Shown: positions 1-39,558 of the stretch, one piece after another | Numbering within the stretch: the first letter of the stretch is position 1 | Layout: each line of letters starts with the position of its first letter | Virus record (IMG/VR): IMGVR_UViG_3300037842_000377 | Location: 1-64,000 of that record | Length of the DNA stretch: 64,000 nt | Reading direction: 5' to 3' (one strand) | From: a virus | Lineage: Duplodnaviria > Caudoviricetes | Translations under genes and position numbers: made by a program | Notes under the pieces: generated by a model | What the model was told of the DNA's origin: nothing | What the model saw: the letters and a program-made list of their open reading frames with translations, nothing else | The model's database searches: none

Positions 1-61
1 CAAATATCTATGACAAGTTTATGGATAGGTACTTCGAGTGGGAAGAAAGCGAATAAAAGAG

Positions 62-89
62 TTGACATACGGTGAATGTACTGTATAAT
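62..89 (+). promoter_or_regulatory. sigma70-type promoter for tRNA-Ala
   Basis: TTGACA (62-67), 16-nt spacer, TATAAT (84-89) directly before the tRNA. Confidence 0.65.
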
Positions 90-162
90 GGGGACATAGC
101 TCAACTGGGAGAGCACCGCCCTTGCAAGGCGAAGGTTGCAGGTTCGATCCCTGTTGTTTCCA
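90..162 (+). tRNA. tRNA-Ala(UGC), CCA not encoded
   Basis: Acceptor GGGGACA/TGTTTCC with G3:U70, D arm AGCTCAACTGGGAGAGC, anticodon loop CTTGCAA, T arm GCAGG-TTCGATC-CCTGT. Confidence 0.92.
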
Positions 163-258
163 ATTACCTCTTAGGAATGATTGAAAGGAAAACCGGGGTC
201 TGAACGTGGCAGGAATTGATCTGTAAACTCGCGACCGGGGTTTTAAAAAGGAAGAATA

Positions 259-534
259 ATGAAATCGTCAGTAGTTAAAGATCTTACAGCTATGTGTTTA
301 GTACCTCCTATGTTGGCGTTACTTTGTATAGTTGGTTGTTTACCGGACTCACATCCGGATTCTAACTACCAGCAAAGTAGGCAAAAACGACTGAAGATGG
401 AAATACAAAACGATCTTCATATCGTTAAGGTGGGCAAATGCCAATACGTACTGTGGTATAACGGCTACGGGTCAGATATGGAACACTACGGTGCTTGCGA
501 ACATTGTGCTAATTTTCAGAAAAAGGACAAATAA
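259..534 (+). CDS. hypothetical protein, possible lipoprotein signal
   Basis: ORF with AAGGAAG RBS; hydrophobic N-terminus ending IVGC. Confidence 0.65.
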   Translation: MKSSVVKDLTAMCLVPPMLALLCIVGCLPDSHPDSNYQQSRQKRLKMEIQNDLHIVKVGKCQYVLWYNGYGSDMEHYGACEHCANFQKKDK

Positions 535-836
535 TGATCAAGATCACAGTCTCAGAAGCCGATAAACCTAGTGAGCCACTTATGAAGCTGTCTGAAATGT
601 TGGACTCTCCATATGGGACGGTCTTTCAGCAGTATATAGAAGGCAACCCCTCAAAAGAGTTCTGGATAAGCTGTGGTCATAGTGAGAAATCATTGGTAAA
701 CTTCTGGTGGGATGAAGAAGGCGGCTGTCACAAACTAAGTACAGATAGCAAGAAAACACTTAGATTACTCAAAGAGTCCATTCAGGCAAAACGTGTGGAC
801 GCAGATCTAAAATTGAAATTGAAAGTGAAAAAATAG
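534..836 (+). CDS. hypothetical protein
   Basis: ORF coupled to the upstream gene (TAATG). Confidence 0.7.
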   Translation: MIKITVSEADKPSEPLMKLSEMLDSPYGTVFQQYIEGNPSKEFWISCGHSEKSLVNFWWDEEGGCHKLSTDSKKTLRLLKESIQAKRVDADLKLKLKVKK

Positions 837-847
837 TCAAAAAGACC

Positions 848-876
848 TTGACAAACAGGGTCCAGTAGACTATAAT
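848..876 (+). promoter_or_regulatory. consensus sigma70 promoter upstream of the ncRNA array and 585-aa gene
   Basis: TTGACA (848-853), 17 nt, TATAAT (871-876). Confidence 0.88.
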
Positions 877-880
877 ATAT

Positions 881-933
881 GAGACAACAGGGGTTCCTAT
901 AAAAATCAATTTATGAAACTTACCCCTCGTCTT
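881..933 (+). ncRNA. repeated RNA helix, copy 1 (minimal A/U-rich loop)
   Basis: GAGAC-AAC-AGGGGT-TCCTAT...AAACTT-ACCCCT-C-GTCTT. Confidence 0.8.
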
Positions 934-939
934 TTTTTT

Positions 940-1052
940 GCAAGCGTAGCTCAATTGGCAGAGCACCAGATGTTACTTGTCAACTACGGTTAAAATCAAG
1001 TTCCTAACAAATTTTAAACTGTTAGATGCAGGTTCGAATCCTGCCGCTTGCA
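940..1052 (+). ncRNA. tRNA-like RNA (Lys-like remnant) with circularly permuted helix copy 2 in the anticodon arm
   Basis: Acceptor GCAAGCG/CGCTTGC-A, D arm AGCTCAATTGGCAGAGC, T arm GCAGG-TTCGAAT-CCTGC; anticodon arm holds ACTTGT-C-AAC-TACG-GTT-AAA-ATCAAGT-TCCTAA. Confidence 0.8.
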
Positions 1053-1055
1053 TTA

Positions 1056-1141
1056 GTGGTACAGAAAGTTCCTATCCGCTACTTCGGTAGCATGGTAAAC
1101 CCTTTCGGGGGTTTAGGTTCAAATCCTATACTTTCCACCAC
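1056..1141 (+). ncRNA. repeated RNA helix, copy 3, with two UUCG hairpins and a T-arm
   Basis: GTGGT-ACA-GAAAGT-TCCTAT...[GCTAC-TTCG-GTAGC][AAACCCT-TTCG-GGGGTTT][TAGG-TTCAAAT-CCTA]...ACTTTC-C-ACCAC. Confidence 0.8.
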
Positions 1142-1155
1142 AGTGATACAAATCA

Positions 1156-1202
1156 TGGGCATAAAGAGTTCCTATAAAAAATTGAAACTTACTCTTCGCC
1201 CA
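1156..1202 (+). ncRNA. repeated RNA helix, copy 4 (minimal loop)
   Basis: TGGGC-ATA-AAGAGT-TCCTAT...AAACTT-ACTCTT-C-GCCCA. Confidence 0.8.
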
Positions 1203-1210
1203 GTTAAAAC

Positions 1211-1296
1211 ATAGGTATAGAGAGTTCCTATTAAACCTCTGCCGCTAGGGCCACTTCGGTGGCAAGGCGGCTCCAAAAAATCTACTCTCCACTTAT
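1211..1296 (+). ncRNA. repeated RNA helix, copy 5, with GC-rich UUCG hairpin cargo
   Basis: ATAGGT-ATA-GAGAGT-TCCTAT...[GCCGC-TAGG-GCCAC-TTCG-GTGGC-AAG-GCGGC]...ACTCTC-C-ACTTAT. Confidence 0.8.
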
Positions 1297-1317
1297 TTTT
1301 TAGGAAGGACGTTAGCT

Positions 1318-3075
1318 ATGAAAACTCTGGAATTGTTTAACGCTGTTGTAGCCAAGCCAAGCAAGTCGGTTGACCCATTCGTGTCAGACCAAGGGTTTGT
1401 TGTTACTCCAGACGCTGCTTGGGCTAAGGATCGCATCGTTGCGTTCTATGGTCAGAACAAGTTGGACGGGAATGACCTGAACAAGGGTTTCCATAAGAGT
1501 TTCGCGAGGGTACGCAACTCATCTCGTTTTGAACTTGCTATGGAGCAGATCCGTCACTACGCATCTACTTACGGTAGCAACTTTGAAGACGAAATGTACA
1601 TCCCAGACGAAGTTCTGGAAGTGCCTGACGTTAAGTTGACGTTCAAGGTTGTTCGTGGTTTGACCGTGGAAGAAATGACAGAACGCTGTTTGGACATGCT
1701 TCGCTCAGGTATCGCCCTGACTGAAGAAACCGTTGACAGTTTGCTATCTATTCTACATGACGAATTGAACTACTCATTTACCGGAAAGGAAGGCGTTAAG
1801 AACAAAGAAGCGATCATCAAGATTGCTGATGCGTATGGCGTTATTCCTGACGATACAATGGAGTTCTTCCGTTACGTCATCTACCGTGCGACTGGGGAAA
1901 CCCTGTTGATCAAGAATGACAAGGCTATTGCTGCTATCAAGGAATCGTCTTTTAACCCATCTGTTCAGTTCCGTGCTCATGGAGTGGACCGTCTGGCGAC
2001 CATCTTCAATCGCTTTAAGCCACTGTTTTTGGCATTCAAGGGTCGATGCCCTGCTGTCATCAATAAGATCTCAAAGCTGTCTAAGACTCGTCATAAGCCT
2101 GTTCCACAGAACGCTTTGAATGAAGTGACAAGTCGTGTGTTGACTACTTGTGACCTTCACTGGTTGGACAACGCTACGCCCTTCGCTGTGTTCAAAGCTA
2201 TGACTGCGGTTTTCAATCGTATGCAGGGTCAAACTGTATTCAATTACCGTATTCGTAATGGTAAGAGTTGGGTTAAGGAAGGTAATGCACCTAAGGTCTT
2301 GGACATGGTGCAGAACTTTAATTTCCTGTCTGACTACGCTACTAAGCGTTGGAATCTGTTAGGGACTAAGGTTTTCCTTCCAGAGGATGTATCATACGCT
2401 GTGCCTACCTCTGAAAAGATGTTTGTGGGGAATATTCCTACGGGCAGCAAGTTTTTCGGAGAAAAGCTATGCGTTGGGATCTACTGGGAAAATGCTTGGG
2501 GTGCTCGTGACCTTGACCTCTCTGCCAGTGCTATTACTGGTGAAAAGATTGGTTGGAACGCTGGGTACTCTACGGGGTTACTTACTTACAGTGGGGACAT
2601 TACTAACGCTCCTAGCGGGGCTGTGGAATACCTACACTGTAAGAGTGGGACTAATCAGCCTTGGCTTGTACATAATAACGTATACTCAGGGTCTGATACA
2701 TCCGGATACAAGATCATTGTTGGTGCTGGAGACAGTGTTGACAAGAAGTTCCTGATGGACCCCAATAAGGTTACGATGGAAGTACGGACTGAAGCGGTTC
2801 AGAAGCAAATGATCCTTGGGATGTTTTTGCCTGAATCGAACGATACTCAGTCTTTTGTTCTTCTGAACTTTGGTGCTGGTCACGCAAGGGTCGGAGGTAG
2901 AAACACATTGGGAGTGCAGGCTCTGTACGAACAATACAAGAGCGTGTTTGACTTCGGACTGTTGCTACAAACACTGGGTGCGGAAGTTGTTACTGAAATC
3001 GATCCAGAGGATGAAGTCCTAGACTTCTCTGTGGATAAGTTGACAAAGGATAGCTTTACTAAGCTATTCAAGTAG
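1318..3075 (+). CDS. 585-aa phage protein with TerD-like C-terminal domain; candidate partner of the upstream RNA array
   Basis: Long ORF, RBS AGGAAGG; motifs FHKSF..EQIRHYASTYG, W..ARDLDLSA and YSGDITNAPSGAVEY. Confidence 0.85.
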   Translation: MKTLELFNAVVAKPSKSVDPFVSDQGFVVTPDAAWAKDRIVAFYGQNKLDGNDLNKGFHKSFARVRNSSRFELAMEQIRHYASTYGSNFEDEMYIPDEVLEVPDVKLTFKVVRGLTVEEMTERCLDMLRSGIALTEETVDSLLSILHDELNYSFTGKEGVKNKEAIIKIADAYGVIPDDTMEFFRYVIYRATGETLLIKNDKAIAAIKESSFNPSVQFRAHGVDRLATIFNRFKPLFLAFKGRCPAVINKISKLSKTRHKPVPQNALNEVTSRVLTTCDLHWLDNATPFAVFKAMTAVFNRMQGQTVFNYRIRNGKSWVKEGNAPKVLDMVQNFNFLSDYATKRWNLLGTKVFLPEDVSYAVPTSEKMFVGNIPTGSKFFGEKLCVGIYWENAWGARDLDLSASAITGEKIGWNAGYSTGLLTYSGDITNAPSGAVEYLHCKSGTNQPWLVHNNVYSGSDTSGYKIIVGAGDSVDKKFLMDPNKVTMEVRTEAVQKQMILGMFLPESNDTQSFVLLNFGAGHARVGGRNTLGVQALYEQYKSVFDFGLLLQTLGAEVVTEIDPEDEVLDFSVDKLTKDSFTKLFK

Positions 3076-3081
3076 GAGATT

Positions 3082-3210
3082 GGAAGGTTAATGTATTCCT
3101 GGGGCTAAATACCGTAGCTATCGTGAAATAAACACCAGACGTTCCCATATGCGAGCGAGGTACTGGTGATAAAAACACGACGTAGCCTGATTACAGGAAA
3201 CTGTACTTCC
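3082..3210 (+). ncRNA. long irregular rod-shaped RNA of unknown family
   Basis: Nested pairs GGAAG/CTTCC, TTCCTG/CAGGAA, GGGCTA/TAGCCT, TCGTG/CACGA, CACCAG/CTGGTG, CGTTC/GAGCG; no ORF. Confidence 0.55.
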
Positions 3211-3300
3211 TTTTGTTGCCACGCCAGTTGTCGCTGGCTAGTCGGGTGTTCCTCTAAATCCCGATGATTGAAGTAGGCTGACTGCCTATAAAACTACGGA

Positions 3301-3387
3301 GGCGGTAATTGAATTAGCCGGTGGAGGGTTAAATCCCAGTGAAGCTAGGTATGATGTAGGGGTGAGAAGCCCTGTTCGATTGCTGTT
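3301..3387 (+). ncRNA. tRNA-like structured RNA with two T-loop-like hairpins
   Basis: 13-bp closing stem GGCGGTAATTGAA/TTCGATTGCTGTT enclosing GGG-TTAAAT-CCC and TAGGG-GTGAGAAG-CCCTG; followed by a U-run. Confidence 0.5.
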
Positions 3388-3392
3388 TTTTT

Positions 3393-3501
3393 GTGATTGT
3401 GGCCGTAATGAGACAATTGGCGACTCACCCTGACTCTCGTATTATTTCCCATAAATTGGGTGTCAGGTCGGTTTATGCAGGTTCGACTCCTGTCAATCAC
3501 A
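3393..3501 (+). ncRNA. aberrant tRNA-like RNA with enlarged anticodon loop
   Basis: Acceptor GTGATTG/CAATCAC-A, D arm TGAG..TTGG..CTCA, stem CCTGAC/GTCAGG around a 27-nt insert, T arm GCAGG-TTCGACT-CCTGT. Confidence 0.65.
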
Positions 3502-3529
3502 CTAACCATTCTGAATGGTTTTACAATAC

Positions 3530-3803
3530 GGGGGCGTACTGGAATTGATTGGTAGACGGAGACTTCAACAACATGTGCTAGGTGGCGTGGAGGCTAGCTA
3601 AAAACCACACCAAACGATAACTGTAAACTCTTTTGCACTTGCAGCGTAAGCTGTGGGGCTTCTGTGAGCCTCATCACTCAATCACAGAGAGATCCTTCGG
3701 GAACTATCGCTAACAGCAAGAACCGTGCCTTAGGCACTAAACATGTAAAAACTGTTGATTTTGAAACCTATACAACACGCGGATTCGACTTCCGCCGCCT
3801 CCA
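3530..3803 (+). ncRNA. ssrA: tmRNA (one-piece, compact, 274 nt), tag (A)VNSFALAA
   Basis: GGGGGCG/CGCCTCC-A acceptor with G3:U70, T arm GCGGA-TTCGACT-TCCGC; ATAACT then GTA AAC TCT TTT GCA CTT GCA GCG TAA (3623-3649). Confidence 0.92.
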
Positions 3804-3923
3804 ATTCTTTTTCCCACGGTCTCCATCAGTTTTTGTGTACCTAATAATGGAAGCGGCGGAAAAACGATTGAAAGTCTCTAATGGTTGAGACTTAACTTTA
3901 GATCTTTTAGAAAGGAATTAAGT

Positions 3924-4313
3924 ATGAGAGGTCTTGTTTTGTTTGCTACTCTAGTAGCCTCAGTTGGTTCAGTGAGTTCAGCACAGGCGGGCGGTCCCTG
4001 TGTTACTGAGGTTCACGCGGTAGTGCCAGCGATTTACGTCGTTGAGCGACCTTCCATTTGTGTAAAACTGAAGGATCGGTTTTGCCTGATGAAGTCTCGT
4101 CTGAAGTCGTCGTTGACGACACGTAGGGTTCCAGCGTTTATAACGTCGGAAGAACTCTGTGCTGTTAAGAGGATTCGCTGTAAAGACGCTATCATTCAGC
4201 GTCAGAAAGAAGAAATTGAGGCACAGCAACGGGAGTTGGAACGGCGTAGGTCCGTAGCAGGGGTCGCTATTGTACCTTTCCAATACCGTACTTTGAAGTA
4301 TTACTCAAGATAG
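3924..4313 (+). CDS. hypothetical secreted protein
   Basis: ATG after AAGGA RBS; signal-peptide-like MRGLVLFATLVASVGSVSSAQA. Confidence 0.7.
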   Translation: MRGLVLFATLVASVGSVSSAQAGGPCVTEVHAVVPAIYVVERPSICVKLKDRFCLMKSRLKSSLTTRRVPAFITSEELCAVKRIRCKDAIIQRQKEEIEAQQRELERRRSVAGVAIVPFQYRTLKYYSR

Positions 4314-4329
4314 AATGCTTAAACACCTG

Positions 4330-4356
4330 AGACCGGCTTTTGAGCCGGTCTTTTTT
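4330..4356 (+). terminator. intrinsic terminator
   Basis: AGACCGGCT-TTTG-AGCCGGTCT followed by T-run. Confidence 0.85.
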
Positions 4357-4387
4357 ATTGGTATAGTCTAAAAATTCCAAAAACGAT

Positions 4388-4416
4388 TTGTCTTTTAGGT
4401 GGTTGTAGACTATAAT
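4388..4416 (+). promoter_or_regulatory. sigma70-type promoter
   Basis: TTGTCT-17-TATAAT, same GTAGACTATAAT context as the 848 promoter. Confidence 0.65.
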
Positions 4417-4458
4417 ATAACAACCAAATACAATTCTTTTAACAGGAGAAACAGAGAA

Positions 4459-4653
4459 GTGGCAGAAGAACAAGTGGCCTCAGTAGAGGAAATGGCAAAA
4501 GTTCACCTTATGAATGTTGAACGAGAGATCGTTGGTCTTGAGGAAAAGCGAGTAGCCATTGTAGCAGAGATTGAACGACTATCGCTTTACTTGAAGCAGG
4601 GACGTTCTACATTGGGTATCGATGGGCAGGAAGCAGCACCTGAGAGTGCGTAA
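4459..4653 (+). CDS. small coiled-coil hypothetical protein
   Basis: GTG after AGGAG RBS; heptad-like LEEKRVAIVAEIERL. Confidence 0.6.
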   Translation: MAEEQVASVEEMAKVHLMNVEREIVGLEEKRVAIVAEIERLSLYLKQGRSTLGIDGQEAAPESA

Positions 4654-4691
4654 TAATTATCAGTCCGAATTTGTAAATCTTGGAGTATCAG

Positions 4692-5036
4692 ATGAATCAG
4701 AATTGTTGGAACGGAGCGGGTCGGCTAACTAGTGATGCGGAATTTAACACAACGAGAAAGGGAACGTCCATGTCTAAGTTTAGGCTGGCCGTCAATGATC
4801 ATCGTAACGATGACACGTTGTTTATCAATGTTTTATGTTTTGGTAAGATGGCGGAAAACCTCAATCCTATGCTTCTTAGGGGCCGTTGCGTGGCTATTAC
4901 TGGCAAGCTAAAGATTGACAACTACGAGGATGAAGAAAAAAACAAGAAAAGTTCCGTCTGTATTATGGCAGACGATATCTCCCTCGGTCCCGATCCATCA
5001 CAGATCATACCAAGGGATAAAAATTCAGACAGATAA
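4692..5036 (+). CDS. ssb: single-stranded DNA-binding protein
   Basis: GRLTSDAE..FRLAVN..FINVLCFGKMAE..G..V.ITGKL OB-fold SSB pattern. Confidence 0.9.
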   Translation: MNQNCWNGAGRLTSDAEFNTTRKGTSMSKFRLAVNDHRNDDTLFINVLCFGKMAENLNPMLLRGRCVAITGKLKIDNYEDEEKNKKSSVCIMADDISLGPDPSQIIPRDKNSDR

Positions 5037-5664: not shown

Positions 5665-5843
5665 TGAAAATTGTTATTGACACAGACCGCTGGAATATAG
5701 TTAAATGTCTCCGCAGGAAATTCAATAAGCCCCCTAAAAATTGGTGGCACTATCACACTAAAGACTGTGGAACAAAGTATCGTGGGTGTTCACCCGATTG
5801 CCCTAAAGATATTTATGAAGAAACTGGTAAGTGGAAGGGTTGA
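5664..5843 (+). CDS. small Cys/His-rich hypothetical protein (59 aa, not in ORF track)
   Basis: TAATG coupling, GGAGG RBS; MKIVIDTDRW...HYHTKDCGTKYRGCSPDCPK. Confidence 0.6.
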   Translation: MKIVIDTDRWNIVKCLRRKFNKPPKNWWHYHTKDCGTKYRGCSPDCPKDIYEETGKWKG

Positions 5844-5846
5844 TAA

Positions 5847-6044
5847 ATGAGTTGTAATGAACTAAAAGAGGGAACATTTTACCTTGTCAGCACCCCGTCA
5901 GTAAAAGGTAGGTTCCAGTATGCTGGCCTAGTACGTGGCCGTTTCCGAAAACATTTATTTCAACATTTTGCCATAGATCTTTATCTTACTGAGGATGAAA
6001 TTATGTGGTATGTAGAAAAGGATAAAACTAATGCGAATATATGA
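5847..6044 (+). CDS. hypothetical protein
   Basis: Short ORF filling the operon gap. Confidence 0.55.
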   Translation: MSCNELKEGTFYLVSTPSVKGRFQYAGLVRGRFRKHLFQHFAIDLYLTEDEIMWYVEKDKTNANI

Positions 6045-34073: not shown

Positions 34074-35699
34074 ATGAAGTGGTTTCCGTTGTGCAATTAC
34101 ACGCACTATTCTCTACAGCGAGCCTTCTCAAAGCCCAAACAACTAGCTAAAAAATGCTCAGAGAATTCTTATCGAGCCTGCGGGATTGCTGACTACAAGT
34201 CTATCTCCGGGGCCGTTTCTTTTTACCAAGCCTGTATCGCGAACGATATTAAGCCAATTATTGGTTGTGCGTTTGATGGTTTCACCCTCTTTGCTAAGAA
34301 CAAAGAAGGTTGGTTGGAACTAATCCGCATCGTGTCCACCCTCGACGACAGGGGAAATGTTGACACTGGGCTATTGGTCAAGCTGGCTAATCAGGGTAAC
34401 CTAATCTGTCTGGCTAGAGATCCCTCTGTCTCACCAATCTCGGGTGAAGACTTCTATCAGAAGAGTTCTGCTTTCCCAAATACGTATTACGTAGAGAGAG
34501 ATCAAGCTGAACTGCACAGGGTTTTGATATGTGGTCACCTAAAGAAGACTATGTCACAAGTAAAGCGGATGATCCGAAACAACACTGATATTGCTGACTA
34601 CCAGATATTCTTTGAGTGTAGCGAATTCTACATAAAAGACAAGATGGAGGCCGCACAGATTCTAGTAGATGATCCTAAGATGGATATCTTCGATGAGATC
34701 TTTGATAAGTGTGAGAACTACAATATCCTCAGTAAGCCAATGCTTCCTAAATTCCCCTGTCCCATTGGTTACAGCGAAGGTGAGTATCTGGTAAAACTGT
34801 GTAAAGAGGGTTGGTTGGAGCTAGAGAAAGACGGCACTATTACATCTGATAACTGTGTAGAATACAGGGCACGCTACGACAGAGAACTCAAGGTTATAGA
34901 GAATGCTAATCTCTCAGGTTACTTCCTTATCGTTTGGGATATTCTCAAATTCTGTCGTGATAACGGTTGGATGGTTGGTCCGGGTCGCGGTTCTGCTGCT
35001 GGATGTTTGATATCCTATCTCATGCAGATTACCATGATAGACCCTATTGAGTTTAATCTACTGTTCGAGCGTTTCTATAATGACGGTCGTAATACAGAAG
35101 ACCATGTATCCCTACCCGATATTGACATGGACGTTCCTACGGGTAAGCGTGACGCAATTATTCAGGAGTTGAAAGAGAGGTATGGTGCGGAAAATGTAAG
35201 TCAAATGTGTACTTTTGGTAGGCTTCAGGGTCGTAGTGCTATCAAAGAAGTACTACGTGTTAACCAAGCCTGTGGGTTTGGTGAGATGAACTACATCACA
35301 AAGTACATACCTGACGAGGCCGCTATCTCTGACCAGTTAGCTATGATGGATGAAGAGGATCGCTCTATCATTCGTTGGGCACTCCTGAACAACGCAGATG
35401 ATCTTAGAGACTACTGTCATATTGATGATGACGGTGAACTACGAGGTGACTACTCTGAGTACTTCCAACAGGCTATTGATATGGAGGGCACCTTTAAGAC
35501 TCAGGGTAAACACGCCGCTGGTGTGGTTATCTCCGCTCAACCGCTTCATGAGGTGTGCCCTATGGTCAACCAAAAAAGCGGTGGAGAAAAGATCGCTGGA
35601 TTAGAGATGAACGATCTGGAGGCACTGGGGCATGTTAAATTTGATGTTCTCGGGATAAATCTTTTGGATAAATTGATGTATGTGAAGGAATTAATATGA
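34074..35699 (+). CDS. dnaE: DNA polymerase III alpha, N-terminal half (PHP + palm)
   Basis: THYSL PHP start, GPGRGSAAG, LFERF, PDIDMD, GKHAAG, KFDVLG. Confidence 0.93.
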   Translation: MKWFPLCNYTHYSLQRAFSKPKQLAKKCSENSYRACGIADYKSISGAVSFYQACIANDIKPIIGCAFDGFTLFAKNKEGWLELIRIVSTLDDRGNVDTGLLVKLANQGNLICLARDPSVSPISGEDFYQKSSAFPNTYYVERDQAELHRVLICGHLKKTMSQVKRMIRNNTDIADYQIFFECSEFYIKDKMEAAQILVDDPKMDIFDEIFDKCENYNILSKPMLPKFPCPIGYSEGEYLVKLCKEGWLELEKDGTITSDNCVEYRARYDRELKVIENANLSGYFLIVWDILKFCRDNGWMVGPGRGSAAGCLISYLMQITMIDPIEFNLLFERFYNDGRNTEDHVSLPDIDMDVPTGKRDAIIQELKERYGAENVSQMCTFGRLQGRSAIKEVLRVNQACGFGEMNYITKYIPDEAAISDQLAMMDEEDRSIIRWALLNNADDLRDYCHIDDDGELRGDYSEYFQQAIDMEGTFKTQGKHAAGVVISAQPLHEVCPMVNQKSGGEKIAGLEMNDLEALGHVKFDVLGINLLDKLMYVKELI

Positions 35700-37998: not shown

Positions 37999-39558
37999 AT
38001 GGATTTGAAGGACGAAAAAGCGTGGGCCTTATATCACGATGGTCTCACCAAGGGTATTTTCCAGTTGGAGAGTAATCTTGGTAGGTCTTGGTCTAAGAAG
38101 GTGTCTCCCAGTAATATCGAAGAGTTGGCAGCACTCATTGCTATCATTAGACCCGGAACGCTCAAAGCTATTAGCGATGGTAAATCTATGAGCCAGCGGT
38201 TTGTTGACCGCAAGGCTGGCCGAGAGGAGGTTACTTACCTTCACGACTCTCTGGAGGATATTCTCAATACAACATACGGGGTGTTGGTCTATCAAGAACA
38301 GGCGATGCGTATCGCTGTGAAACTCGCTGGCTTCAGTGAGCAGGAAGCGGATTATCTACGTAAGGCTATCGGCAAGAAGAAAGCCAAGCTGATGATGGAA
38401 ATCCGTGGGCAGTTCATTGAGGGTTGTGAGAAGGTGGGTATAGTAGACGGTGATGTAGCTAAAGAAATCTTTAGCTGGATTGAAAAGTCGTCTCGATACT
38501 CATTCAACAAGTCTCACGCTGTGGCGTACGCCATGAACTCTTATTGGTCAGCTTGGTATAAAGCTAATCACACGGTTGAGTTCTTCACGTCTTACCTATA
38601 CCACGCGAATGAAAAACAGGATACCCATCAGGAGATCTATGAACTAGTCTCTGAGGCTAAACTGTTTGACATTGAGGTGAAGTCGCCAAATCTAACCTCT
38701 TTTGGTCTGAAATTTGAGCGTGTGGGTAGTGACGTGTTCTTTGGGGTCAAGGATGTTAAGGGTCTTACTGGGGTCACTGGTGACAAGGTGGTGAAAGCCA
38801 TTAAGGATGCTGTGTGGGAATCCAATAAATCACTAGAGGAATTCACTTGGATGGATGTTCTATTATACATTGCTCCCAACATAACTAGTACTGCTTTCAA
38901 AGCCCTGTGTTCTATTGGGTTTTTCTCTACCAAATCTACCGGTGTGAGCAGAAATAAGGCACTGTACGAATACCTTATATTCCGTGAACTGACTAAGGCG
39001 GAAATGAAGTGGGTTACAACGCAGTATCCGGAAAAACGATGGGAAACCCTTGGTGAGTGTTTTCAAGACCTGTCTCCTACAAAGAAGATGGGTGGAGGGA
39101 CCAGTAACGCCAACCGTAGTCAGATCGTCCTGAACGAAGTGGGTATGCTGGCAAGCCCACCATACGGAATGTCGGATGACCCTTCTTGGATCGTCGAGAT
39201 GGAAAAGAAGTTCTTGGGCTGTCCAGTTTCCCTAAGTGAAGTCGAAGCGGTCGATACGTCTATCTCCAACACTTCATGTAAGGATATCGCGAATGGGAAG
39301 TTTGGTAAGGATATCTGTCTTGTAGTGAACATCACAAGGATGAACAACTTCAAGATCAAGAAGCAGGGCAAGAACTTTGGCAAACTCATGTCATTCCTAA
39401 CCGTCGAAGATGCTTCCTGTTCTCTTGATAGCGTCGTGGTATTTCCTGAGACCAGAGAAAAGTACAGGTTCATTCTATATGAGGGCAACAATCTAATGCT
39501 GTGCGGCGACGTAGAGCAGGATAATTCCTTCATTGTTAACAAAATTCACGAAATCTGA
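37999..39558 (+). CDS. dnaE: DNA polymerase III alpha, C-terminal half (fingers, HhH, OB fold)
   Basis: GIFQLES, IRPG, TYGVLVYQEQ, LRKAIGKK, YSFNKSHAVAY, MSFLTVED. Confidence 0.93.
   Translation: MDLKDEKAWALYHDGLTKGIFQLESNLGRSWSKKVSPSNIEELAALIAIIRPGTLKAISDGKSMSQRFVDRKAGREEVTYLHDSLEDILNTTYGVLVYQEQAMRIAVKLAGFSEQEADYLRKAIGKKKAKLMMEIRGQFIEGCEKVGIVDGDVAKEIFSWIEKSSRYSFNKSHAVAYAMNSYWSAWYKANHTVEFFTSYLYHANEKQDTHQEIYELVSEAKLFDIEVKSPNLTSFGLKFERVGSDVFFGVKDVKGLTGVTGDKVVKAIKDAVWESNKSLEEFTWMDVLLYIAPNITSTAFKALCSIGFFSTKSTGVSRNKALYEYLIFRELTKAEMKWVTTQYPEKRWETLGECFQDLSPTKKMGGGTSNANRSQIVLNEVGMLASPPYGMSDDPSWIVEMEKKFLGCPVSLSEVEAVDTSISNTSCKDIANGKFGKDICLVVNITRMNNFKIKKQGKNFGKLMSFLTVEDASCSLDSVVVFPETREKYRFILYEGNNLMLCGDVEQDNSFIVNKIHEI

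Follow-up and report, generated by a model that had tools for sequence, protein, structure and literature searches.

What is a tRNA whose anticodon loop has been replaced by a helix that also shapes the RNAs beside it? The question is raised by the 64,000-nucleotide window of a marine phage analysed here (positions 1 to 64,000 of the IMG/VR virus record IMGVR_UViG_3300037842_000377, Caudoviricetes), in which five small structured RNAs, four stand-alone elements and one tRNA chimera, are clustered at 882-1294 ahead of a gene for a 585-aa protein. An earlier note on this DNA had read the chimera as a non-decoding tRNA mimic built around a circularly permuted copy of its neighbours' helix.

The tRNA body of the chimera (940-1052, plus strand) is recognised by the Rfam tRNA model, by the intron option of ARAGORN, by its predicted fold and through 28 homologous chimeras. 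The Rfam model (RF00005) covers 940-1052 at 51.4 bits (E 3.3e-9; gathering score 29) with all of its 71 positions matched, and the anticodon loop measures 49 nt versus 9 in the model. The acceptor stem (940-946 with 1045-1051) is followed by the discriminator A at 1052, after which CCA is not encoded. The D arm lies at 949-964 and the T arm at 1028-1044; G18G19 and the T-loop GTTCGAA are present, and a remnant of the anticodon stem pairs 966-969 with 1019-1022. Within this remnant sits the permuted motif (971-1009, plus strand), identified from its sequence, its fold and the retention of the same parts in 28 aligned chimeras. It consists of the 3' strand of a helix that we call P1 (ACUUGU, 975-980), a bulged C (981), a second helix P0 (AAC 982-984 with GUU 989-991) capped by a UACG tetraloop (985-988), AAAA (992-995), the 5' strand of P1 (UCAAGU, 996-1001) and UCCU (1002-1005). 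Unlike in the earlier note, four A residues and not three stand opposite the C, and the outermost P1 pair is U.U. The string of letters given for this insert in the earlier note proved exact from 975 to 1007.

Both P1 and P0 are part of the predicted fold. Folding of the single sequence yields the acceptor, D and T arms together with a hairpin of ACUUG/CAAGU and AAC/GUU under the UACG cap, at -32.6 kcal/mol (z -3.16; equalled by 2 of 200 shuffles). An inner helix, UGUU 971-974 with AACA 1006-1009, can be read from the sequence and is not in the minimum free energy (MFE) fold, where CUAACA (1004-1009) pairs instead with UGUUAG (1020-1025) and replaces the extended anticodon arm. In most chimeras the stretch after UCCUA is also able to fold back on GUUCC, as judged partly by eye, and because of these two alternatives the exact geometry of the arm is uncertain. 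On its 3' side, the unpaired segment AAUUUUAAA (1010-1018, plus strand) is not conserved in relatives. It coincides both with the anticodon loop (UUA) chosen by ARAGORN with its intron option (-i) and with the supposed remnant of a tRNA-Lys(UUU) ancestor. The latter idea is not supported by comparison: L003, the nearest relative detected, already has UGUUAAA in place of UUUUAAA.

The helix grafted onto this tRNA is shared with the stand-alone RNAs of the cluster. In these, the module is arranged as P0, AAA opposite C, a 6-bp P1, an asymmetric core and a variable cargo; P1 always ends with G-U/A-C, and the core has an invariant 5' UCCUA(U)A and 3' U. The first of them (882-932) shows P0, AAC opposite C, P1 (AGGGGU/ACCCCU), a UCCUAUA core and a small hairpin as cargo. 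With R1, a covariance model built from stand-alone copies, it scores 57.8 bits (E 3.4e-16) and is part of the seed alignment. The three others, all outside the seed, are RNA 3 (1057-1140; 31.8 bits, E 1.6e-7), RNA 4 with a minimal cargo (1157-1201; 46.6 bits, E 1.9e-12) and RNA 5 (1213-1294; 39.7 bits, E 4e-10). The 55-nt cargo of RNA 3 comprises a pair of hairpins with tetraloops and, at 1114-1128, a hairpin resembling a T arm (UAGG-UUCAAAU-CCUA), and RNA 5 combines a P0 of the GGU/ACU class with a G+C-rich nested hairpin. These are the only four copies that R1 detects in the 64-kb window, all on the plus strand and all within 882-1294; likewise, when all 111,468 bp of the record were scanned by script, full-scoring copies of the motif turned up only at 882-1294. 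The insert of the chimera has the invariant letters of the module, GU-UCCUA on one strand and U-AC on the other with AAA opposite C, in swapped strand order, and the same holds for 28 further chimeras. The insert is thus a permuted copy of the neighbours' helix, and comparison of the chimeras supports the view that the tRNA body occupies the position of the cargo. Loops of short cargos contain GGA, a possible partner of the UCC bulge, in 36 of 135 cases versus 10.1 expected. We note this enrichment, which arose from considering GGA/UGG in cargo loops, as an observation and do not adopt the pairing, as GGA is present in only about a quarter of the short cargos and absent from the chimera of the window.

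Sequence comparison indicates that the module is a conserved RNA structure. In 49 stand-alone copies, chosen for perfect P0/P1 pairing, 99.6% of cells are paired versus 76.3% in shuffles (none of 500 shuffles reaches 99.6%), and 8 of the 10 pairs change on both sides. Since the copies were selected on P0/P1, the unbiased item is an extra flanking pair that was not a selection criterion: it is paired in 47 of the 49 copies, with six pair types. The covariation of P0 and P1 and the flanking pair bear out the claim that the element acts as a folded RNA. They also weigh against a site acting in DNA, in which the GTTCCTA core and its inverted repeats would bind a recombinase or a regulator. GTTCC is indeed followed by GGAAC within 3-13 nt in several chimeras, and the core would resemble half of the yeast FRT site, the 9-mer AGTTCCTAT being presumably identical to part of an FRT half-site. 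However, P0/P1 pairing is kept by compensatory changes while the sequences vary, which therefore points to a transcript structure and not to a protein-DNA site. Moreover, all 234 copies detected by R1 across related loci (E <= 0.001; 94 loci) lie on the strand of the protein gene, and no recombinase is adjacent. A DNA-level site thus appears extremely improbable.

Related phage loci contain 28 further distinct tRNAs with the permuted insert, which places it far beyond chance. In all 29 chimeras, window included, the insert lies between the D arm and the T arm, with no variation in its place or orientation, and the loops capping P0 are mostly of 3-4 nt. Among the 28 aligned chimeras the acceptor stem is 98% paired with compensatory changes at all 7 pairs, and pairing reaches 100% in the D stem, 97.9% in the T stem, 89.9% in P1 and 95.2% in P0. 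As the stems stay paired through compensatory changes, both the tRNA body and the rod formed by P0 and P1 are under selection. One could imagine instead a phage tRNA gene destroyed by a small repeat spreading in the locus, the chimera being without function. Five copies of one repeat within 420 nt would fit such a scenario, and pseudo-tRNAs do occur in phage tRNA arrays (annotation of S-CBWM1). Intact and covarying acceptor, D and T stems in 29 chimeras, together with the constant place and orientation of the insert, are not what is expected of dead genes. Rfam tRNA scores of 37-53 bits in the six chimeras scored (window 51.4, L020 52.8, L014 50.6, L008 49.3, L013 49.2, L003 37.3) argue in the same direction, and neither a target-site duplication nor terminal repeats are evident. 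We regard this scenario as very improbable.

Could the chimera nevertheless decode? In an intron-bearing tRNA the rod would be excised to release a decoder reading UUA (an ochre suppressor, according to ARAGORN) or UUU (lysine, as proposed in the earlier note). The motif would then be a cut-and-join signal akin to a bulge-helix-bulge, and the same enzyme would free or circularise the cargos and mature permuted tRNA genes. The earlier note had anticipated such an intron call, and ARAGORN, silent by default, indeed reports with its intron option a tRNA-Stop(tta) whose 'intron' of 42 nt separates positions 31 and 32. Only 2 of the 29 chimeras are called by default; with the intron option there are 28 calls on 29 chimeras, all modelled as intron-bearing. 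Removal of the discarded side of the stem and joining of cargo ends would also explain the permuted tRNA cargos described below, and a plausible loop, UUUUAAA, lies beside the anticodon stem in the window. Against this, the 28 calls return 19 different anticodons with 'introns' of 4-53 nt at positions 31-38, and near-identical bodies are assigned to different amino acids. No pair of cut positions fixed relative to the motif, sought by hand and computed, gives a 7-nt loop in all chimeras. The spacing between anticodon stem and rod is inconstant, its 5' part measuring from -2 to 10 nt and its 3' part from 1 to 16 nt; in L111 (1+1) and L083 (-2+4) a total of 2 nt separates the anticodon stem from the motif, which would leave these tRNAs loopless after excision. 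The bulge geometry is not 3-4-3, with one 4-nt bulge (UCCU) and no matching bulge 4 bp away, and neither a tRNA-intron endonuclease (PF01974) nor an RtcB ligase was found in the record, which is 67% complete. A group I intron would require a core of more than 200 nt, far beyond the 42-49 nt of the insert, and an Rfam scan of positions 1-5000 at E <= 1 detected no intron family.

The tRNA-Stop(tta) call raised in addition the possibility of stop-codon recoding. We rejected it on ORF statistics: read with the standard code, the genome is already densely covered by ORFs, and TAA readthrough gains no more than that of TGA or TAG. Nothing thus points to a recoding of TAA for which a UUA suppressor would be needed. 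We thus consider an intron-bearing tRNA improbable, whether viewed as a suppressor or lysine tRNA or as the product of a general cut-and-join signal. The elbow and the acceptor end are kept and the anticodon loop is missing, for which reason the chimera should be unable to decode. The spread of 19 anticodons and the absence of a loop in L111 and L083 support the non-decoding nature proposed in the earlier note. By comparison of sequences, the chimera is most likely a tRNA-shaped adaptor RNA and not a decoder.

The module is distributed well beyond this phage. At least one copy occurs within 800 nt upstream of the protein gene in 91 of 99 non-identical loci encoding the protein, and 8 have none; the script used for this count demanded pairing, so that any 'percent paired' derived from script-based locus counts is biased upward. 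An independent scan used a pattern of 15 motif bases; among the 80 loci fetched, 8 held a paired motif, with the protein adjoining in 5 of the 8. Linkage between motif and gene persists down to about 31-34% protein identity, including in the Synechococcus phages S-CRM01 and S-CBWM1. A DNA search of the phage GenBank collection for close relatives gave no match and a single-sequence scan of viral contigs found nothing, whereas alignment-based scans did find relatives. Our literature search found no description of the motif, of such tRNA chimeras or of the 585-aa protein family. A 2023 compilation of some 10,000 candidate RNAs from viruses (PMC10690425) may hold the module unnamed; GUUCCUA/GTTCCTA is absent from the searchable part of its supplement.

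Some of these loci display the opposite topology. Stand-alone copies in L015 (two), L063, L087/L088 and L109 carry a permuted tRNA as their cargo, in the order T arm, closed acceptor hairpin, D arm. One of them (L015 2847-2912) gives a sub-threshold match to the Rfam model of YrlA, a Y RNA known to mimic tRNA (RF02553; 33.1 bits vs a cut-off of 69; E 0.0024), and no YrlA match was obtained in positions 1-5000 of the window at E <= 1. The likeness to YrlA RNAs suggested in the earlier note is therefore apt, given the YrlA-like topology in other loci and this weak match.

How might the cluster be expressed? A predicted sigma-70-type promoter (TTGACA, 17 nt, TATAAT; 848-876, plus strand) agrees with the consensus at 12 of 12 positions. 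From this promoter, transcription would start at about 882-884, that is, at the first base pairs of RNA 1. RNA 5 ends 24 nt 5' of the start codon of the 585-aa protein, just before the ribosome-binding site. Among 20 matched public runs, one is on record as RNA and one is labelled RNA but is probably DNA. The only metatranscriptome contig near the locus (2004-2271) lies inside the protein gene and may be DNA carry-over; no RNA-library contig covers 840-1300 in the four public runs examined, which is uninformative on splicing either way.

This arrangement could suggest that the five elements are merely parts of the 5' UTR of the protein gene, acting in cis as repeated binding sites in autoregulation, or to stabilise or process the transcript. 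The tRNA body would then be just a cutting signal by which RNase P and RNase Z separate the elements, with no trans-acting particle and no role for tRNA shape other than in processing. The copies lie directly upstream and all on the strand of the gene, the last one adjoins the ribosome-binding site, and a single promoter would serve the entire unit; tRNAs are generally known to serve as processing punctuation. However, copies also occur 3' of the gene in four loci (L024 5110-5310, L027 4788-4913, L031 3898-3936 and L001 5827-5876), and two precede a different small gene in L195. In addition, a precise graft of the rod onto the anticodon stem would be superfluous for a cutting signal, the reverse topology with its closed acceptor cannot be cut out as a tRNA, and distinct cargo classes follow one another in a fixed order across loci. 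A purely cis-acting leader is thus an unlikely reading, albeit one that deserves consideration.

The product of the neighbouring gene (1318-3075, plus strand) is the candidate partner of these RNAs. This 585-aa protein has at least 1494 homologues, occurs commonly in phage contigs of marine, freshwater and gut origin, and sits within tRNA/tmRNA regions. It has no Pfam or PHROG family, and Pfam TerD does not match at E <= 0.01. Its structure model (pLDDT 78.8) predicts a helical N-terminal domain and a TerD-like C-terminal domain. The TerD beta-sandwich (residues ~380-536) is matched with a VIA Z score of 10.4 and an rmsd of 3.2 over 138 residues for 2qz7_B, and with a Foldseek E value of 2.4e-5 for 2kxt; a further VIA Z score of 9.4 and a Foldseek probability of 1.0 were obtained among TerD family proteins. 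For the N-terminal domain alone (~350 residues), the best matches reach a VIA Z score of 6.3 across 70 residues and a Foldseek E value of 0.15. TerD domains are known as Ca-binding stress proteins and are not known to bind RNA, and searches of Pfam, PHROGs, PDB profiles and the N-domain fold revealed no recognisable RNA-binding domain. Neither did we see any likeness to Ro60 or its TROVE domain in Pfam, PHROGs, PDB single-sequence and profile searches or the ESM Atlas. Pfam TROVE was found neither in the 67% complete record nor among 29 homologues of the protein at E <= 1, and Ro60 is not among the Foldseek and VIA matches of the full model and the N-domain, a distant relation being beyond the reach of such searches. 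From the gene neighbourhood, we infer that the protein probably binds the RNAs of the cluster.

With moderate confidence, we propose that the five-RNA cluster, with its shared rod and its chimera as a non-decoding tRNA mimic, represents a new family akin to the Y RNAs, to which the downstream protein probably binds. Structure and absence of decoding are deduced by comparison, and protein binding and function are inferred. A single strong promoter would drive all five RNAs, which precede a conserved phage gene. In RNA 2, the chimera, the chain is circularly permuted such that the cargo is a tRNA body whose acceptor stem is formed by the RNA's own 5' and 3' ends, and the rod, closed by the UACG tetraloop, would project from the anticodon stem. 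A protein could dock on this rod, the likeliest candidate being the helical and TerD-like protein encoded 24 nt downstream. The tRNA body would permit maturation as a tRNA, by RNase P, 3' trimming and CCA addition, and could bring the particle into contact with a factor able to recognise the shape of a tRNA. The logic would be that of Ro60 with YrlA, using another helix and another protein. The last copy, set against the ribosome-binding site, may also let the protein control its own translation.

It is tempting to go further and to suggest, more tentatively and with somewhat less than even confidence, that a widespread and undescribed phage ribonucleoprotein exists, in which the helical and TerD protein is served by dedicated modular 'GUUCCUA-rod' RNAs whose rod has been grafted onto tRNA bodies in both circular permutations. 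If so, tRNA-shaped adaptors could bring the protein to the tRNA machinery of the host (RNase P, the CCA-adding enzyme, EF-Tu or the ribosome), or the chimeras could act as decoys for this machinery, for instance in a contest between phage and host over tRNAs. The principle of Ro60 and Y RNAs would then have been invented independently.

Several consequences follow for the study of phage RNAs. Ro60 with YrlA is the one known system to combine tRNA mimicry with a helix for protein docking, and the same design seems to recur here with a different helix and, as presumed docking partner, a different protein of unassigned function. In this family, nature has circularly permuted an RNA module around a tRNA, providing direct comparative evidence that the three-dimensional shape is selected and not the order of the chain. 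Default tRNA finders miss such genes, and the intron option labels them as suppressor or intron-bearing tRNAs, and this can be a source of error when phages are claimed to recode stop codons. The module RNAs also offer a testable handle on a large family of 'hypothetical' phage proteins.

Among known systems, ordinary phage tRNAs (RF00005) share with the chimera the acceptor, D and T arms, G18G19, the T-loop GTTCGAA, a score above the Rfam threshold and a location in phage tRNA/tmRNA regions. In contrast to them, the chimera is devoid of a 7-nt anticodon loop, its ~40 extra nucleotides form a conserved rod, and chimeras are skipped by default tRNA finders. Intron-bearing and circularly permuted tRNA genes of archaea and algae are processed at bulge-helix-bulge motifs. 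They resemble the module in that one motif is found in two mirrored settings, inside the anticodon region of a tRNA or surrounding a permuted one. The module differs from them in having no 3-4-3 bulge-helix-bulge, no endonuclease or RtcB found in the 67% complete record and no consistent mature anticodon loop, and it mostly flanks non-tRNA cargo. As for the TerD family, the 585-aa protein is modelled with its beta-sandwich in the C-terminal domain, but this is fused to a ~350-residue helical domain for which no structural relative was found, and the gene lies outside any ter operon.

The closest parallel is offered by YrlA and Ro60. According to Chen et al. (2014; PMC4201824), these small RNAs likewise adjoin the gene of a conserved protein, often with several per locus and also in phages, and possess a long stem with a conserved protein-contact motif, a contact that for our module is presumed. 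As described there, YrlA also bears a tRNA-mimicking module with T and D arms, a feature seen in 940-1052 and in the permuted cargos, and its topology is that of the RNAs in L015, L063, L087 and L109, with the ends of the RNA within the stem and the acceptor closed by a loop. The Ro-contact motif reported in the same source is GNCGAAN0-1G in YrlA and GGUCCGA in vertebrate Y RNAs; the module does not have it, its invariant strand being GUUCCUA. In contrast to Ro60, neither a TROVE nor a vWA signal was seen in the neighbouring protein, which is TerD-like in its C-terminal half, and most members of the module family have no tRNA-like cargo, unlike YrlA. The helix differs as well, being GU-UCCUA / U-AC with AAA opposite C, and in the chimera of the window the permutation is the opposite one, the ends of the acceptor being free and the rod forming a hairpin.

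The motif found upstream of the 585-aa gene is closed in every copy by a helix, P0, followed by an internal loop of three A (sometimes AYA) facing a single C, and by a 6-bp helix, P1, that always ends in G-C followed by U-A. Its core carries UCCUA(U)A on the 5' strand and a U directly preceding AC on the 3' strand, and the variable stretch between the core strands forms its cargo. Five occurrences of GTTCCTA on the + strand lie between 893 and 1230; the 12 in the whole window are no more than expected by chance, so that the clustering is what matters. From 49 stand-alone copies (not embedded in a tRNA) drawn from many loci we built a covariance model, which recovered four copies in the 64-kb window, at 882-932, 1057-1140, 1157-1201 and 1213-1294, three of them outside the model seed, and no further copies outside this 882-1294 cluster. 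Our script likewise found full-scoring copies only there in the whole 111,468-bp record; its background in this genome, about 24 weak calls in 222 kb, is negligible for counts of upstream copies. No family of Rfam 15 covers the motif copies.

The comparison drew on 36 viral and 80 metagenome loci encoding the 585-aa protein; the non-identical loci, including the window and two cyanophages, number 99. At least one copy, and usually two to four, lies within 800 nt upstream of the gene in 91 of them. The eight others are L009, L018, L024, L036, L073, L081, L089 and L100; in L024 and L036, other parts of the locus do contain copies. At E <= 0.001 the covariance model found 234 copies in 94 loci, 100% on the strand of the gene. 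In the 49-copy alignment, 99.6% of cells are paired versus 76.3% in shuffles, and both sides change in 8 of 10 pairs. As these copies were selected for perfect P0/P1 pairing, an additional outer pair that was not selected on is the fair item: it is paired in 47/49, with AU, UA, CG, GC, GU and UG all seen. The motif is thus a conserved, covarying RNA module. A site acting at the DNA level fits these data poorly, and its probability is close to nil.

The residue following UCCUA is U where protein identity is at least 47%, while clades at 28-44% identity (L028-L033, L031, L037, L001, L002) have A there or a UCCUU, UCCUG or UCCUC core. This might reflect co-evolution of RNA and protein, but is only a hint, because related loci share ancestry. 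Independently, viral contigs were scanned for a pattern; of 80 loci fetched, 72 were chance matches and eight had a paired motif, five of these with a protein of the 585-aa family. L159 and L185 are doubtful, and L195, a 4.3-kb contig, has two good copies (1981-2070, minus strand) behind a promoter-like site and followed by a different small gene (126-140-aa protein) outside that family. The linkage of the motif to the 585-aa gene is tight, not absolute.

Several features of the copies deserve mention. In most loci the copy closest to the start codon (1213-1294 in the window) forms its own class, in which P0 is GGU with ACU or ACC versus GRC with GYC elsewhere, and the cargo lacks GG; a U-run and the ribosome-binding site come after the copy. 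The copy classes keep their order across loci. UGGA/UGG is enriched in hairpin loops of short cargos (e.g. L008 1641-1690, L054 1287-1339), with GGA in 36 of 135 (10.1 expected) and UGG in 37 (10.5 expected); these loops and the invariant UCC bulge could form a pseudoknot. GGA(A/G)C also stands directly 5' of the 3' anticodon strand in many tRNA chimeras, the window chimera being without it. In Synechococcus phage S-CRM01 (L001), five model matches (3515-3966) lie directly upstream of g174 and one (5827-5876) just past it; the overlapping reverse-strand ORF g173c (3788-3934) is probably not a gene.

The second RNA of the cluster (940-1052, +) had been described in the earlier note as a tRNA containing a circularly permuted copy of the motif, and the sequence string given there matches the window. 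It aligns end to end with the Rfam tRNA model at 51.4 bits (gathering score 29), with 49 nt in the anticodon-loop region versus 9 in the model. ARAGORN makes no call by default and, with introns allowed, calls a tRNA-Stop(tta) that has 42 nt inserted after position 31. The single-sequence fold (-32.6 kcal/mol, z -3.16; 2/200 shuffles equally stable) retains the acceptor, D and T arms, and 975-1001 folds as ACUUG/CAAGU plus AAC/GUU with a UACG cap. The minimum-energy fold prefers a local hairpin of 1004-1009 with 1020-1025, and the geometry of the arm joining the anticodon stem to the motif's rod is uncertain. The motif parts run 3' strand, loop, 5' strand: the same parts with the strand order swapped, which bears out the proposed permutation with the tRNA body in the cargo's place.

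Thirty permuted-copy candidates were found, 29 of them, from 27 loci, flanked by D and T arms; that of L049 was a false call with no tRNA around it. ARAGORN spans 2/29 chimeras by default and 28/29 with the intron option. In an alignment of 28 of the 29, compensatory changes occur at each of the seven acceptor pairs, with 98% of cells paired; pairing reaches 100% in the D stem, 97.9% in the T stem, 89.9% in P1 and 95.2% in P0, and none of 500 shuffles attains the observed level. The anticodon stem at its canonical site is paired in 116/140 cells, with 21 strand combinations. The module is permuted into a maintained tRNA body: stem covariation and anticodon-stem pairing argue for a maintained fold rather than a wreck, and a dead tRNA struck by a repeat fits poorly and is highly improbable.

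An intron whose splicing would restore a decoding tRNA might be read from the ARAGORN calls made with that option. These 28 calls, however, give 19 different anticodons and 'introns' of 4-53 nt at positions 31-38, and near-identical bodies are called Leu-taa (L094), Phe-aaa (L103), Gly-tcc (L092) and Leu-caa (L110). Anticodon stem and rod are separated by -2 to 10 nt 5' of the rod and by 1 to 16 nt 3' of it, leaving no nucleotides for a loop in L111 (1 and 1) and L083 (-2 and 4), and the P0 cap loop is mostly 3-4 nt. Moreover, UUUUAAA of the window is not retained in L003, the closest relative found, and nothing in the genome points to TAA recoding. For these reasons the chimera appears not to be a decoder, its anticodon loop having been lost, and splicing to a decoder, a poor fit, is quite unlikely. 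Neither RtcB nor a tRNA-intron endonuclease was found in the record, which is only 67% complete.

A sigma-70-type promoter perfectly matching the consensus is predicted at 848-876, from which the transcript likely starts at the first pair of RNA 1, and the RNA cluster ends 24 nt before the 585-aa ORF (1318-3075). A purely cis-acting leader array is possible, if rather improbable. In the mechanism we favour, the rod would be the binding site of the 585-aa protein, the chimera would be matured like a tRNA, and the particle, through its tRNA shape, would gain access to a tRNA-binding partner or imitate one; the copy adjoining the ribosome-binding site may provide translation feedback.

The 585-aa protein matches no Pfam or PHROG family, and no RNA-binding domain was recognised in it. 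Of 7999 scored candidates, at least 1494 are homologues at E <= 0.001, most of them from viral contigs; those of Synechococcus phages S-CRM01 and S-CBWM1 are located within tRNA arrays. Its AlphaFold model (pLDDT 78.8) combines a helical N-terminal part with a C-terminal beta domain resembling TerD proteins (Foldseek E 2.4e-5; VIA Z 10.4, rmsd 3.2 over 138 residues). For the N-terminal 350 residues, modelled separately (pLDDT 81.6), no structural relative is convincing (at best, Foldseek E 0.15 and VIA Z 6.3 over 70 residues). We saw no sign of Ro60/TROVE in the protein, its homologues or its own record, although fold searches cannot exclude a relation.

On its 3' side, the gene is followed by a long non-coding stretch (within 3080-3806) with a tRNA-like T arm at about 3469-3500, a tmRNA at 3530-3806 (Rfam, 52.2 bits) and a weak permuted-tmRNA match at 3450-3649 (18.6 bits); L003 has a clear permuted (two-piece) tmRNA at the same position (4777-5029, 80.3 bits). 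With the chimera cluster 5' and the tmRNA 3', the gene is flanked on both sides by translation-related RNAs. Further upstream, tRNA-Ala(UGC) (89-163) begins where a perfect sigma-70 consensus promoter (62-89, 12/12) ends; its transcript would have no leader. Elsewhere the window consists of a replication and nucleotide-metabolism region typical of lytic phages and, after it, a large glycosyltransferase cluster. DNA polymerase III alpha appears split into PHP plus NTPase domains (34074-35699) and a finger domain (37999-39558), with small ORFs between, among them those for a YopX-family protein and an RNase T-like exonuclease. At least 13 ORFs in 30612-61000 encode glycosyltransferases, sugar epimerases/dehydratases, methyltransferases or nucleotidyltransferases, an unusually long run for a phage.

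The mirror arrangement also exists: long-cargo stand-alone copies enclose a permuted tRNA in L015 (two, 2688-2928), L063 (1369-1481), L087/L088 (453-563 in L087) and L109 (313-428). Their cargo runs from the 3' anticodon strand through variable loop, T arm, acceptor helix with a short closing loop and D arm to the 5' anticodon strand, and a T-arm-like hairpin alone occurs in shorter cargos (window 1057-1140, L039 1315-1371, S-CRM01 3896-3956). The same three-dimensional design, a rod plus a tRNA-like body, thus occurs with either chain connectivity, which argues that selection acts on shape. YrlA, as described by Chen et al. (2014; PMC4201824), has this arrangement, and L015 2847-2912 is a sub-threshold match to the Rfam YrlA model (33.1 bits, E 0.0024). 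We regard the helix, the protein, the stand-alone forms and the acceptor-open permutation as new, since they have no Rfam family and we found no description of them in the literature, where a 2023 catalogue of viral candidate RNAs, its supplements partly searched, could contain the stand-alone motif unnamed. The principle itself is already known from Ro60/YrlA.
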